DNA of 64,000 nucleotides from Eledone cirrhosa (Eukaryota): assembly GCA_964016885.1 (NCBI GenBank), contig OZ024761.1:7378001-7442000 (forward strand), written 5' to 3'. Position 1 is the first letter of the stretch, and every line of letters starts with the position of its first letter. Position numbers and translations under genes: made by a program. Under the pieces are notes generated by a model, which made no database searches, was not told the origin of the DNA, and saw only the letters and a list, made by a program, of their open reading frames with translations. This document shows, one piece after another, positions 4,411 through 63,234 of this stretch.

Positions 4411-4526
4411 TACGGAAATTGAACTCCGTTCTTATTTCAAACAACCACGACACACACATATATATATATGTATGCATGTACGTTGATATTAAATAAATGG
4501 AAACTATATTTATAAAACCATATTTA

Positions 4527-4586
4527 TTCTATTATATATATTTCAAGGGTACCAACATTTTGGTACGCTATCATCAGATAAAATAC
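4527..4586 (-). ncRNA. Minimal type I hammerhead ribozyme motif (PLE terminus)
   Basis: Minus strand: tattttat-CTGATGA-tagcgtaccaa(aatg)ttggtaccctt-GAAA-t(atat)a-TA/atagaata. Stem I about 8 bp, triplet AUA. Confidence 0.65.
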
Positions 4587-4990
4587 GAAGTGTGTTTTAT
4601 AAATGTTGACATAACCAAGGAGAATATACCTTAACGGTTCAAGTTATCCTTGGATTGTATGTATGTATATGTATGTGTGTGTGTGTATCTGTGTAAACAA
4701 AGATTGGAACAGCAAGGGTTAGTGTGACGTCAGAGAATTCCAACCCCTACCTCACACATTCACAATATATATATGCATAATATATATATATATATGCATG
4801 GATATATATACACAGTTCAAGAGTAACCAATCTTAAAAAGAGAGATGGAGATAGGAGAGGAGATATGAGAGGAGAGATTGGTGAATTAGTTAGAAGCCAA
4901 AGCGCAAAGGCATGTGCTCAATGTGTAATATGCAGTAGAAAGCAGCTAGGTGGCTGGGTTCATGCAGAAGTCAGGCGCGCAGAGCTGGAA

Positions 4991-5502
4991 ATATTCATTA
5001 GTTAAGTAAAACAAGACCACAAATTTCACAAGGAAGACATTATTAAAAGATTGTCAACATATTTTAGTTCAATGTAAGGAATGTTAATAATATGTTAATT
5101 ATTTTCAACTGAACCAGATCAATTATGATATATAGTCATCTGATCCAGAAATATTATATGGAGTAGCGGTGAATTGGCAGTATCGGTAGAGGGTAGGATA
5201 TGCTTTCCAGCATAGTTACGTCCCTTTACGATCTGAGTTCAATTCCCGCCGAGGTTTACTTTGCTTTTCATCCTTACGGGGTCGATAAAATAAAGTACCA
5301 GTAATGTACTGGGATAATTGCTGGCCTTGTGCCAAAAGTAGAAACAATTATATGGAGTAGCGAAACAATTGTAAACGGTCATTATTGTTATTAATATTAT
5401 TATTCTCTACATTCCTTACATCAAACTAAAATATGTTGACAATATTTTAATAATGTCTTCCTTGTGAAATTTGTGGTCTTGTTTTACTTAACTAATGAAT
5501 AT
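4991..5502. mobile_element. Fold-back PLE-like remnant with a SINE inserted in the loop
   Basis: ~90-bp inverted arms (4991-5083, 5408-5502). The loop keeps a hammerhead 3' half, GAAA-c(aatt)g-TA, at 5362-5373. Confidence 0.65.
5169..5346 (+). mobile_element. Near full-length tRNA-derived SINE with 16-bp TSD
   Basis: A-box-like TGGCAGTATCGG and B-box-like GAGTTCAATTCC. TSD ATTATATGGAGTAGCG at 5153-5168 and 5347-5362. Confidence 0.9.
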
Positions 5503-18945: not shown

Positions 18946-18981
18946 TCTTCTGACGAAGGACTAGCGTCCGAAACATTAAGA
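18946..18981 (+). ncRNA. Minimal hammerhead motif with loopless, mutated stem III
   Basis: tctt-CTGACGA-a-ggac(tagc)gtcc-GAAA-CATT/aaga, inside a short non-repetitive island (~18845-19065) between TA tracts. Confidence 0.55.
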
Positions 18982-57653: not shown

Positions 57654-57786
57654 CTGCAAAATAAAATAAAATAAAATAAAATAAAATAAAATAAAATAAA
57701 ATAAAATAAAAAATAAAATAAAATAAAATAAAAATACTTCGTTTCTGAAATTTGTTTTGCAAGATTTCAACGTGTGTTGAAACATA

Positions 57787-57992
57787 TATTGTTATACTTT
57801 GAGAGAGTCATGCTGCCAATAAAATAAAAAAATCAGTCGGAGAATGTGTGACAAAAGAGCGGTGTCAATATATAAACAACCATCTGGTTATTGAACCAAC
57901 CAACCGAAAATTTATAATAAATTGAAGTGAAATCCAACAGGTGTGTGTGTGTGTTTTTATTGGCAGCATGACCCTCCCAAAGTATAACAATA
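57787..57992. mobile_element. Fold-back terminus (same family as 13276-13575) in the last unk intron
   Basis: ~38-bp inverted arms; interior homologous to 13415-13575. Confidence 0.75.
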
Positions 57993-58940
57993 AAAATAAA
58001 TAGATGAATGAAAAAAGAACAAAGAAATATACTTGATAGTGACCCCAATATTTTACGTTGAGAAATAGAGAAAAATCCAAACCATAATTACTTAGAATGT
58101 GAAGTTGGTGAAAATCGTCAAAATATTGCCTCCGAGTTATAAACCCCTTCACCATTTTTACCATCGATTTTTTAGTCTCATATTCAAGTATATTTGATTA
58201 ATTAACCCTTTCGATAGTCACCCAGCCTGGTTCTAAGAACCACACATTTTAACAGCTTCCTATTTAACCTTTACCATTCTAACATGCCATATCCAGCCAG
58301 AATTCTTTCACCTCTTTCTTTCCAAACTGGCCATAACTAGCCAGATATTTATGTTAAGGTATTGTTATCTCAAAATAATTAACATAAAAATCTTGTAGAT
58401 TCGATATTGTGAGATAATTATGTAAGATTACCACAAAAATAGTATATGTAGAGTAATAGTTTCTACTTTTGGCACAAGGCCAGCAATTACCCCAGTGCAT
58501 TACTGGTGCTTTATTTTATCGACCCCGTAAGGATAAAATCAAAGTTAACATGGGTAGGATTTGAACCCAGAACACAAAGGGTCATAACTATGCCACACTA
58601 CCGATACTGCCAACCCATTACCCTTATATATAATATATAGAGAGTAATGTAAATGCTAAAGGGTTGAATTAATATCTTCCAACATAACTTGATATAAAAA
58701 ACACCATTGTCACTGTTGTTTTAATATCCACTTTCCCTGCTAGCAATGGTTGGATATTAGTTTATGTTATAATTACTTATCATACTAATGAAATAATTAA
58801 TTTTAGCAAATGCCTTAAAATTTTTCATTAATTAATTAAAATACAGTTTATTTTATAAGATTATGGGAAATGTTAAGTGATGGATTGACATTAAGAAGCA
58901 TTGGTAAAATTTGTGCTATATATATATATATATATATATA

Positions 58941-59100
58941 CAGATAAAATTCTGATATAACAAATTTTTCAGTATAACAAAATTTGTTCAATCCCCGGCC
59001 ACACGCTCGATGTATTAAGTTGATCTCGTTATAAAGAATTTTTCATTACAATGAATATTTTTTTATACCCCGTGAATTTCGCTATAATGGAATTTCACTG
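58941..59100. mobile_element. TA-flanked MITE
   Basis: TA-CAGATAAAATTC…GAATTTCACTG-TA imperfect TIRs. Confidence 0.6.
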
Positions 59101-59158
59101 TATATATATATATATATACGATATTAATAAATGGAAACTATATTTATAAAACCATATT

Positions 59159-59223
59159 TATTTCATTATACATATTTCAGGGATACCACATTAAATTATG
59201 GTATGCCTTCATCAGACAAAATA
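59159..59223 (-). ncRNA. Hammerhead ribozyme motif (left arm of palindrome, sense to unk pre-mRNA)
   Basis: Minus strand: tattttgt-CTGATGA-aggcataccata(atttaa)tgtggtatccct-GAAA-t(atgt)a-TA/atgaaata. Confidence 0.72.
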
Positions 59224-59300
59224 CAATATATAACAGTTTTACAAAAATGGTTGTATTTTAAAGGGTACGTCAAACCTATTTGTAAAACTGTTATATATTG

Positions 59301-59365
59301 TATTTTGTCTGATGAAGGTATGCCATAATTTAATGTGGTATCCCTGAAATATGTATAATGAAATA
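59301..59365 (+). ncRNA. Hammerhead ribozyme motif (right arm of palindrome)
   Basis: tattttgt-CTGATGA(59309-59315)-aggtatgccata(atttaa)tgtggtatccct-GAAA(59346-59349)-t(atgt)a-TA/atgaaata; predicted cleavage after 59357. Confidence 0.72.
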
Positions 59366-59517
59366 AATATGGTTTTATAAATATAGTTTCCATTTATTAA
59401 TATCATATATCTACTCCAAAAATTTGTCGAGTACTTTATATCAGTTATAAAAATATTTACTTGTTGTATCCCAACAACTTTAAATAGAACTTTTGCATAT
59501 ATATATATATATATAAA

Positions 59518-60345
59518 CTCCTCTGCCTCCTTCAGTGTGTTTGTCACCAAAACTATGTCGTCGGCAAATTCAGCATCCAATATCTTTTTCGCCTTAACTC
59601 TCCTGCTGTGAGCCAGTGTTACAGTAAAGCCAGATTCCTGGTGTTTCTCCAACACAGTGAAGGAGGCAGAGTAGTTGATGCAGGAGGTGGAGACTGTGCA
59701 GCTGAGAATGAATGAGATTAAGAGGAAGTATCTGGTAGAGAATATTAAGAAGCCAGAGAAGATTACTAATGTAGGTGGAAAGCCGCTAGAATTGGTTGAG
59801 GACTTCCTGTATCTGGGAGCAAAGATTGGGAATATGGAAGATGATGTGGTCGAGAGGAAGAGCAAAGCTTGGGTGGCGTGCCAGAGCTTGAGATCGGTGT
59901 GGAAGTCGGACCTTCGTGAAGACCTGAAGATCCATCTCTTCGTTGTGGAGTCTATGCTGCTGTATGGGTCTGAAACTTGGACACTGACCAAGACACTCTC
60001 TTAGATGGTGGATGGGTGCTACACGAGAATGCTGAGGATGGCTCTGAACATTAATCAGTATACACTGAGGATGAAGAACTCATCGCTGTACGGGAGCCAC
60101 CCATAAGTGACACAGAGGAGACTGAGGTTAGCTGGACATGCTCACCGACATCCAGAGTTGACATTGCACTCAGTGCTCCTGTGGGAGCCCTTACATGGAC
60201 ACACTGGAAGAGGAAGACCAAGGTTAACGTATGTTGATGCCCTAAGGACAGACACTGGTCTGTTGGAGACGCAAGACATGGCAGCGATAATGAGGGACAG
60301 AGACTGCTGGAGAGAACTCGTCCATGGATGTCGGGAATTTTATCC
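59518..60345 (+). mobile_element. RTE-like LINE 3' fragment with an inverted 5' segment
   Basis: + strand: DFLYLGA, VESMLLYGSETW, RRLRLAGH..RH, GRPRLTYVD. The - strand at 59518-59642 reads DAEFADDIVLVTNTLKEAE. Confidence 0.88.
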
Positions 60346-60401
60346 GCACTCTATATATATATATATAGGGAGAGAGAGAGAGAGAGAGAGAGGGGCAGTT
60401 T

Positions 60402-60437
<36 letters not shown>

Positions 60438-60455
60438 GCTGTTGTAACAACTTAC

Positions 60456-60629
60456 CTCATCGACGTGTTTACTATCGATTCTTAATTGCTGTTGAATTTG
60501 TTTAAGTTGTTGAAAAGCAAGGTAATCTAATTCGTTGCTTTGTTGAGAACAGAGTAAAAAAGAATTGAGAGAGGATCCAGCTTTCAGCTTCTCCAGTTCA
60601 TGTTGTAGAGTCTTCACACGATTTAATGC
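60456..60629 (-). CDS. unk: Unkempt-family protein, penultimate coding exon (coiled coil)
   Basis: CAG acceptor at 60630-60632, GTAAG donor at 60455-60451. 174 nt encoding ALNRVKTLQHELEKLKAGSSLNSFLLCSQQSNELDYLAFQQLKQIQQQLRIDSKHVDE, phase 0 at both ends. Confidence 0.88.
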
Positions 60630-61696: not shown

Positions 61697-63234
61697 CTAC
61701 CAAAGAGTTCTCATTACCTAATATACTCTCCATAGCTTAACAGCACTAAAGAGTTCTTACTAACTAATATACTTTCCATAGCTTAACCGCACTAAAGAGT
61801 TCTCACTACCTAATATACTCTCCATAGCTTAACCGCACTAAAGAGTTCTCACTACCTAATATACTCTCCATAGCTTAACCGCACTAAAGAGTTCTCATTA
61901 CCTAATATACTCTCCATAGCTTAACCGCACTAAAGAGTTCTTACTAACTAATATACTTTCCATAGCTTAACCGCACTAAAGAGTTCTCACTACCTAATAT
62001 ACTCTCCATAGCTTAACCGCACTAAAGAGTTCTCACTACCTAATATACTCTCCATAGCTTAACCGCACTAAAGAGTTCTCATTACCTAATATACTCTCCA
62101 TAGCTTAACCGCACTAAAGAGTTCTTACTAACTAATATACTTTCCATAGCTTAACCGCACTAAAGAGTTCTCACTACCTAATATACTCTCCATAGCTTAA
62201 CCGCACTAAAGAGTTCTCACTACCTAATATACTCTCCATAGCTTAACCGCACTAAAGAGTTCTCATTACCTAATATACTCTCCATAGCTTAACCGCACTA
62301 AAGAGTTCTTACTAACTAATATACTTTCCATAGCTTAACCGCACTAAAGAGTTCTCACTACCTAATATACTCTCCATAGCTTAACCGCACTAAAGAGTTC
62401 TCACTACCTAATATACTCTCCATAGCTTAACCGCACTAAAGAGTTCTCACTACCTAATATACTCTCCATAGCTTAACCGCACTAAAGAGTTCTCATTACC
62501 TAATATACTCTCCATAGCTTAACCGCACTAAAGAGTTCTTACTAACTAATATACTTTCCATAGCTTAACCGCACTAAAGAGTTCTCACTACCTAATATAC
62601 TCTCCATAGCTTAACCGCACTAAAGAGTTCTCACTACCTAATATACTCTCCATAGCTTAACAGCACTAAAGAGTTCTCACTACCTAATATACTCTCCATA
62701 GCTTAACAGCACTAAAGAGTTCTCACTACCTAATATACTCTCCATAGCTTAACAGCACTAAAGAGTTCTCACTACCTAATATACTCTCCATAGCTTAACA
62801 GCACTAAAGAGTTCTCACTACCTAATATACTTTCCATAGCTTAACAGCACTAAAGAGTTCTCATTACCTAATATACTCTCCATAGCTTAACCGCACTAAA
62901 GAGTTCTCACTACCTAATATACTTTCCATAGCTTAACAGCACTAAAGAGTTCTCATTACCTAATATACTCTCCATAGCTTAACCGCACTAAAGAGTTCTC
63001 ACTACCTAATATACTCTCCATAGCTTAACAGCACTAAAGAGTTCTCACTACCTAATATACTCTCCATAGCTTAACAGCACTAAAGAGTTCTCACTACCTA
63101 ATATACTCTCCATAGCTTAACAGCACTAAAGAGTTCTCACTACCTAATATACTCTCCATAGCTTAACAGCACTAAAGAGTTCTCACTACCTAATATACTC
63201 GCCATAGCTTAACAGCACCAAAGAGTTCTCACTA
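61697..63234. repeat. 46-bp minisatellite (~33 units) with a 4-unit higher-order repeat, in an unk intron
   Basis: Unit TTAACCGCACTAAAGAGTTCTCACTACCTAATATACTCTCCATAGC. Confidence 0.97.

Follow-up and report, generated by a model that had tools for sequence, protein, structure and literature searches.

A two-strand hammerhead palindrome in the last coding intron of Unkempt of Eledone cirrhosa very probably derives from a Penelope-like element

The palindrome and its host intron

The window analysed here is a stretch of 64,000 nucleotides of the Eledone cirrhosa assembly GCA_964016885.1 (contig OZ024761.1, positions 7,378,001 to 7,442,000 of the forward strand). It contains the last coding intron of Unkempt (unk), which hosts the insertion described below (Table 1). 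The splice sites of this intron are canonical (GAG/GTAAGT at 60456/60455 and TTGCAG/GTG at 57654/57653). At 85% identity, the upstream exon corresponds to an Octopus sinensis protein named RING finger protein unkempt, and the last exon matches zf-C3HC4_3 (C3HC4 RING). The O. sinensis protein carries PF18384, a domain which we take to be Unkempt zinc finger 1, and the sole PF18384 match lies ~101 kb past the window on the same minus strand. The first-pass annotation had placed the palindrome between unk exons at 60456 and 57653, with which both the splice sites and the exon identities agree.

The inverted arms (59111-59253 and 59271-59413) are 143 nt each and 95% complementary, and the near-identical two-strand palindrome read initially from the sequence is thus real. 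In the ~125-nt core of the arms, mismatches are found solely at 59205/59319 and 59202/59322, so that the mirror is inexact, and the 17-nt centre between the arms is asymmetric and matches the parent element described below. Each arm carries CUGAUGA, a 12-bp stem II with one mismatch, GAAA and AUA, which bears out the earlier statement that a complete hammerhead motif lies on each strand. Both motifs point outwards, their cores being located at 59215 on the minus strand and at 59309 on the plus strand. Neither of the two was called in an Rfam search at gathering thresholds. The minus-strand RNA of the palindrome is predicted to fold into a hairpin of -188.5 kcal/mol (z = -32 against 100 shuffles).

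The extent given at first, 59120-59404, was right for the core arms, but the unit is larger: the full insertion spans 59119-59496 (378 bp), enters (TA)n on both sides and reaches its right end through a tail of ~90 nt on the right arm alone. The left arm is identical at 129 of 129 positions to a long copy elsewhere in the genome (L059), by which the insertion appears to be recent; the right arm plus tail matches the same copy at 250 of 257 positions.

Table 1. Features of the palindromic insertion and its host intron (positions in the window)
Feature	Position	Strand	Basis or remark
Last coding intron of Unkempt (2802 nt), hosting the insertion	57654..60455	-	Splice sites and exon identity
Left (TA)n target microsatellite	59101..59118	.	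Sequence; nearly all copies flanked likewise
Left arm: PLE 3' end (pseudo-LTR), stopping at start site 1, no tail	59119..59245	-	Matches the 3' end of L062
Type I hammerhead motif, sense in unk pre-mRNA; 2-bp stem III and palindromic loop; predicted cut after A59167	59159..59223	-	
Head-to-head inversion junction, blunt by parser (overlap 0)	59245..59246	.	Position varies among copies
Right arm: PLE 3' end including the 17-nt asymmetric centre	59246..59405	+	
Type I hammerhead motif, antisense to unk; predicted cut (mirror site) at 59357/59358	59301..59365	+	
PLE tail, ending at start site 2	59406..59496	+	Equals the ~90 nt between 5' pseudo-LTR and ORF in long copies
Right (TA)n target microsatellite	59497..59515	.	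Sequence

Other repeats were also noticed in the neighbourhood. A LINE fragment (RT motif ADD plus downstream region) with its 5' part inverted occupies 59517-60345 of the window, directly next to the right (TA)n of the insertion; LINE sequence of this family also flanks L029, another locus of the palindrome family. Tandem arrays of ~46-bp and ~51-bp units occur within Unkempt introns (window 61700-63230; L065 4900-10000).

The repeat family and its parent element

The palindrome belongs to an abundant family. A 303-nt palindrome query returned 1031 candidates, of which the 40 that were scored gave 82 matches with 84-100% identity, and for a 30-mer of the hammerhead the genome has 933 exact matches (472 + 461), against 0 for a reversed control. 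In the 27 loci that were fetched, both ends enter (TA)n, one arm running ~90 nt further before it does so. Among the first 100 of these matches listed, neighbours at a distance of up to 6 kb were head-to-head in 25 cases, tail-to-tail in 1 and on the same strand in 4; a head-to-head pair was present in 25 of the 69 clusters, from which we extrapolate roughly 230 such pairs genome-wide. The closest pair is spaced by 56 nt and the widest by 4549 nt, the window copy by 175 nt, and the spacing lies below 500 nt in 14 of the 25 pairs. Fifteen of the 44 other clusters, chosen in list order (two previously fetched and one same-strand pair being skipped), were inspected further: an inverted piece was present in nine and absent from four, one was ambiguous (L099) and one unmapped.

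Walking upstream from the arms led to long copies with a unit of ~4.06 kb. L062 comprises a pseudo-LTR (pLTR), the tail, a frame of 738 codons, a 3' region of ~1.7 kb and a second pLTR, while L059 comprises an inverted pLTR, a direct pLTR, the ORF and a further pLTR. Tandem or inverted pLTRs around a single ORF, with the hammerhead inside the pLTR, are the arrangement expected of Penelope-like elements (PLEs). No intact copy was found among those fetched, as L062 has no start codon and a gap of 7 codons relative to homologues, and L059 is frameshifted.

The parent protein, which has 309 full-length homologues at E <= 0.001, carries RWR, DKT and YRDD motifs, a CxCX5C linker, a GIY-YIG-like VVY..YVG core, and CxxC and CxH motifs. 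The Hydra clade of C-terminal EN+ PLEs was defined by RWK, a change of DKG to DKT, the CxCX5C linker, the lack of CCHH, and CxxC/CxH (Craig et al. 2021, PMC8557442). In the parent protein sequence P0001 we found the corresponding RIRWRAF (R replacing K) and SDKTNNLY, the linker CNCRNKSNC, VVYNCSV..YVG with one C and no CCHH, CDLCIEE and RNNLFSCCRH; RWR/RWK-like, DKT, linker, CxxC and CxH motifs are thus shared with the clade described in that paper, which includes Hydra-1_Obim and Penelope-13_HM. A Pfam search assigned no family to P0001 and gave a weak GIY-YIG match in just 2 of 60 aligned homologues, and a PDB profile search with the parent protein was empty; the RT and GIY-YIG domains are therefore assigned from motifs and from by-eye likeness to Hydra-1_Obim. 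Judged by its sequence, the parent is a young PLE with Hydra-clade motifs.

The likeness to the Hydra clade extends beyond the protein, since a canonical-core hammerhead near the 3' end and (TA)n targets, the latter seen across our fetched copies, are described there likewise, and a 5'-truncated inverted copy of the Hydra element Penelope-13_HM carries a hammerhead on both strands, as here (PMC8557442 and its supplement). Hydra-1_Obim is nonetheless a separate family: its hammerhead sequence differs, and the proteins are alike by eye only. The present unit (~4.06 kb, with the ~1.7-kb 3' region) also exceeds the 'generally <3 kb' reported for Hydra elements, and its tail (~90 nt, or 92 by site spacing) the published 30-40 nt. 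Its stem II has 12 bp with a C.C mismatch and its stem III 2 bp, whereas the Hydra table of PMC8557442 gives mostly 3-7 bp and 3-4 bp. In being of type I with a long stem II and a short palindromic stem III, the motif resembles the minimal dimer-type PLE hammerheads of Cervera and de la Pena (2014, PMC4209133), from which it differs in that A10.1-U11.1 rather than G-C closes stem II, in having no bulged base after A9, and in a stem I of 8 bp. Pairs of minimal hammerheads, placed on opposite strands at a distance of ~100-700 bp, were reported from Schistosoma in the same paper.

Older PLE families with a similar CxC linker were observed at L060 (304-3033), upstream of a copy of the parent family, and further RT fragments at L045 and L053.

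Two fixed start sites and the formation of the mirror

The two arms of a pair end at different sites, 92 nt apart, of the element: the tail-less arm stops at site 1, and the tail of the other arm at site 2. In an unbiased set of 25 head-to-head pairs, the tail was found on exactly one arm in all 25 (in two of them it continues into a tandem unit), for which an independent choice of end by each arm would give a chance of at most 0.5^25. An earlier set of 34 loci, 27 of them from a query favouring the one-tail form and one in common with the unbiased set, had a one-sided tail in 33, the exception carrying a secondary insertion. L099, where an inverted tail (326-422) lies 4.1 kb upstream of a tail-bearing arm (4574-5168) with no family sequence between, may be either a two-tail exception or two insertions.

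At seven loci, including the far end of L062, and additionally at L104, an inverted arm consisting of the tail only stands opposite a long, tail-less arm that ends at site 1. Fold-back on an arm that has no tail could not produce one, and such copies are most simply explained by independent priming at each of two fixed sites. The breakpoints differ almost without exception (32 distinct pairs among 33 measured), by which the mirror appears to be made anew at each insertion. The junctions overlap by 0-4 nt in 14 of the 33 and have short fillers in others, and several large values are parser failures at mismatches, so that no rate of microhomology follows from them. At the centre, the tail-bearing arm was the shorter one in 13 of the 25 pairs and the longer one in 8, the two being equal in 1 and unclear in 3. 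Divergence between arms was 1.06% within an insertion (37/3493) against 1.43% between insertions, and six variants, in five insertions, are common to both arms; given both observations, the two arms likely stem from one source element.

We consider it very probable that the palindrome arose when the young Hydra-motif PLE inserted into a (TA)n of the Unkempt intron as a 378-bp, 5'-truncated, head-to-head copy, likely made by two RT events primed from opposite strands; in the twin-priming step taken by itself, our confidence is fair rather than high. By this mechanism, the protein of the element would nick both strands of the (TA)n, and each nick would prime cDNA synthesis at one of two fixed positions within the element RNA, where the TA-like ends of the start sites (5-6 bases) could pair with the target. 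Both cDNAs would end early and would then be joined 5' to 5'. The hammerheads would be passengers of the pLTR, and the pre-mRNA hairpin, together with any editing there, a by-product. Arms that overlap and both carry the hammerhead speak against twin priming in its plain form, since a single RNA can yield them only with strand displacement or from a tandem transcript, unless a second RNA takes part.

For L1, twin priming is said to have been proposed by Ostertag and Kazazian in 2001, primers on opposite strands reportedly yielding a 5'-to-5' inversion. The tail-only copies share that geometry. L1 differs in having a variable second site and pieces with hardly any overlap, whereas the present family uses two fixed sites and its arms mostly overlap by >100 nt. 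Another parallel is PAc, a Poseidon element of Anolis, in which two internal RT starts bound the tail, targets are AT-rich, and both strands are cut and extended (Frangieh et al. 2024, PMC11167929). PAc belongs to another clade, and its starts lie inside the ORF and are described as not homologous to the target, whereas the present element has its starts upstream of the ORF, with 5 and 6 TA-like nt at their ends. Runs of these lengths occur at 2.1% and 1.0% of element positions, figures obtained post hoc, and the match suggests that the start sites may pair with the (TA)n target; the non-homologous start reported for the anole PLE (PMC11167929) argues against such pairing. In vitro insertion of the anole PLE did not need hammerhead cleavage according to the same report.

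The best-surviving alternative, which we regard as unlikely without dismissing it, is that a single cDNA or antisense template folds back and primes itself, and that the endonuclease later moves or trims the tail. Self-priming was proposed in the Discussion of Arkhipova et al. (2013, PMC3846280) for Penelope of Adineta vaga, and fold-back was suggested for the tail in PMC8557442. The Adineta elements are similar to ours in having head-to-head inverted pLTRs, one of which bears a tail at its 3' end, and their layout of inverted pLTR, direct pLTR, ORF and direct pLTR is that of L059; there, target-site duplications are visible, whereas here the (TA)n hides any duplication, and the tail-only arms favour twin priming. 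Microhomology of 1-4 nt at several junctions would suit fold-back, as would the lower divergence within insertions and the shared variants, but the latter fit any model with one source element. Tail-only inverted arms without sequence in common with the opposite arm are difficult to reconcile with fold-back, as is the fact that either arm may be the longer one.

A further possibility, that a non-autonomous, MITE-like or retrozyme-like palindrome moves as a fixed unit of ~380 bp, we find very improbable. Many copies are indeed near ~380 bp, and spacings below 500 nt prevail among the 25 pairs, but the near-absence of repeated breakpoint pairs, sizes that grade continuously up to 4.5 kb, with ORF sequence taken in, and unequal termini are at odds with a unit of constant interior and equal ends. 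Nor is the tandem layout of non-LTR retrozymes seen, close neighbours being head-to-head 25 times against 4 same-strand cases; no tandem array is present, unlike in retrozymes as described in a recent preprint (bioRxiv 10.64898/2026.07.22.740005).

As a locus, the Unkempt copy is an ordinary repeat copy, and the family itself is of modest value. PMC8557442 counts the origin of inverted structures and tails of PLEs among the questions still to be answered, and notes that the inverted, 5'-truncated PLE copy bears a tail often at one end only. The family described here gives a clean genomic rule, namely that in 25 of 25 pairs one arm terminates at site 1 and its partner at site 2, along with tail-only arms and TA-like starts. 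This rule links the two in vitro start sites reported in PMC11167929 to twin priming and argues against a simple fold-back. A literature search on Penelope, twin priming and inversion retrieved nothing on this topic by title or abstract, a weak basis for claiming novelty.

The hammerheads in host transcripts

The first-pass annotation had proposed that transcription of the minus-strand unk pre-mRNA yields the antisense arm before the sense ribozyme, which would then be captured in a long duplex; the duplex would protect the pre-mRNA and be of a size suited to ADAR, and editing or helicase opening could in principle switch cleavage on. The geometry behind this idea is correct. Transcription does reach the antisense arm before the sense arm, and for the sense hammerhead, which retains all its core bases, folding predicts 96% pairing with the other arm within ~135 bp of dsRNA, an equilibrium prediction and not one of co-transcriptional folding. 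The order of the arms is not special to the Unkempt copy, because any head-to-head pair gives it on either strand. As for protection and a switch, we found no support, the shape being a routine insertion product of the family.

The minus-strand sequence has the features of a hammerhead (core, three stems and NUH triplet), with a stem III of just 2 bp and a palindromic loop, AUAUGUAU. In the monomer, the active fold was computed at -8.9 kcal/mol against a minimum of -13.4, i.e., 4.5 above it. PLE motifs of this kind were reported to show no cleavage as monomers and low cleavage as dimers in vitro (PMC4209133; review PMC6765202). By fold prediction and analogy, the present dimer-type hammerhead is likely weak as a monomer, and with an unfavourable monomer fold in a motif type that did not cleave as a monomer, little would need shielding. 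Mutagenesis of the core and the NUH rule indicate that base changes there tend to disable hammerhead ribozymes. Adenosines occupy 6 of the 12 core positions, so that editing would be more likely to disable the ribozyme than to switch it on. The hammerhead core is damaged in 8 of 68 arms of the family, and in L003 both arms share a broken core, which fits a dispensable ribozyme. The DNA copies bear no editing footprint in the form of an A>G excess: among 37 private variants, A>G accounts for 7, which equals the 7 of C>T, with 37 A against 10 C columns.

A switch selected by the host, in which the unk pre-mRNA is shielded from cutting itself for as long as the duplex holds and is cleaved once ADAR editing or a helicase has opened that duplex, consequently earns hardly any credence from us. 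Besides the arm order, the predicted pairing and the intact core, the octopod host could be cited in its favour, as ubiquitous editing in squid falls mainly on repeats in introns and 3' UTRs (PMC9068888). Against it stand the routine and recent nature of the insertion, the unfavourable monomer fold of a dimer-type motif whose PLE relatives stayed uncleaved as monomers in vitro (PMC4209133), and the editable adenosines of the core. Further, the hammerhead of the anole PLE cleaved only in the presence of the element protein, and no RNA-seq reads ended at its site, as far as PMC11167929 reports. The window also contains 24 other long inverted alignments within 6 kb, a list that includes one self-match of the insertion. 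No such switch was found, by title or abstract, in a literature search combining hammerhead, ADAR, intron, antisense and retrotransposon.

Editing of the hairpin as a by-product is plausible by analogy. It is attractive to speculate that a family inserting head-to-head mutes its own hammerhead in host transcripts of either strand and could settle in introns from which an exposed ribozyme would be removed by selection, leaving a few hundred ADAR hairpins in the genome, the Unkempt copy being edited with effects on splicing or turnover of the last intron, although we hold this combined scenario to be improbable. If intronic copies proved to be enriched for the self-muting form, they would represent a new route by which ribozyme-bearing elements are tolerated in genes.

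Least credible of all is an assembly fold-back artefact, raised at the outset as a potential objection: no contig or read from the 8 runs compared with 58300-60500 spans the locus, the arms being swamped by family reads and the unique flanks barely covered, so that the case against it comes from internal evidence only, namely two internal differences between the arms, an asymmetric 17-nt centre matching the parent, ends at different biological sites, unique collinear intron flanks on both sides, and a one-tail rule that holds at 25 of 25 other loci.

Several minor motifs were noticed in the window and the family. Pair 4 of stem II is a C.C mismatch in 15 of 16 stem II sequences from divergent hammerhead families as well as in the main family, while the neighbouring pairs vary (G-C, A-U, U-A); the divergent sequences came from the window (4519-4585, minus strand) and from L004, L006, L008, L010, L011, L016, L018, L020, L025, L031, L047, L050 and L053. 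From this pattern, the mismatch is a candidate for a tertiary-contact or protein-binding element, and among the papers listed by a literature search none mentions a 'C-C mismatch'. In the Unkempt intron, the minus-strand hammerhead retains it, and the plus-strand arm, with two private stem II changes (59319 and 59322), has lost it (59319). Another large palindromic element lies at 1569-2285 of the window, with 147-bp arms that match at 97% and an interruption by a short repeat; it contains hairpins resembling the histone 3' stem-loop at ~1715-1735, 1864-1882 and 2011-2028, and Rfam Histone3 matches 1859-1904. At 18950, on the plus strand, a compact sequence resembling a hammerhead core (CUGACGA ... 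GAAA) with a short stem II was also observed.
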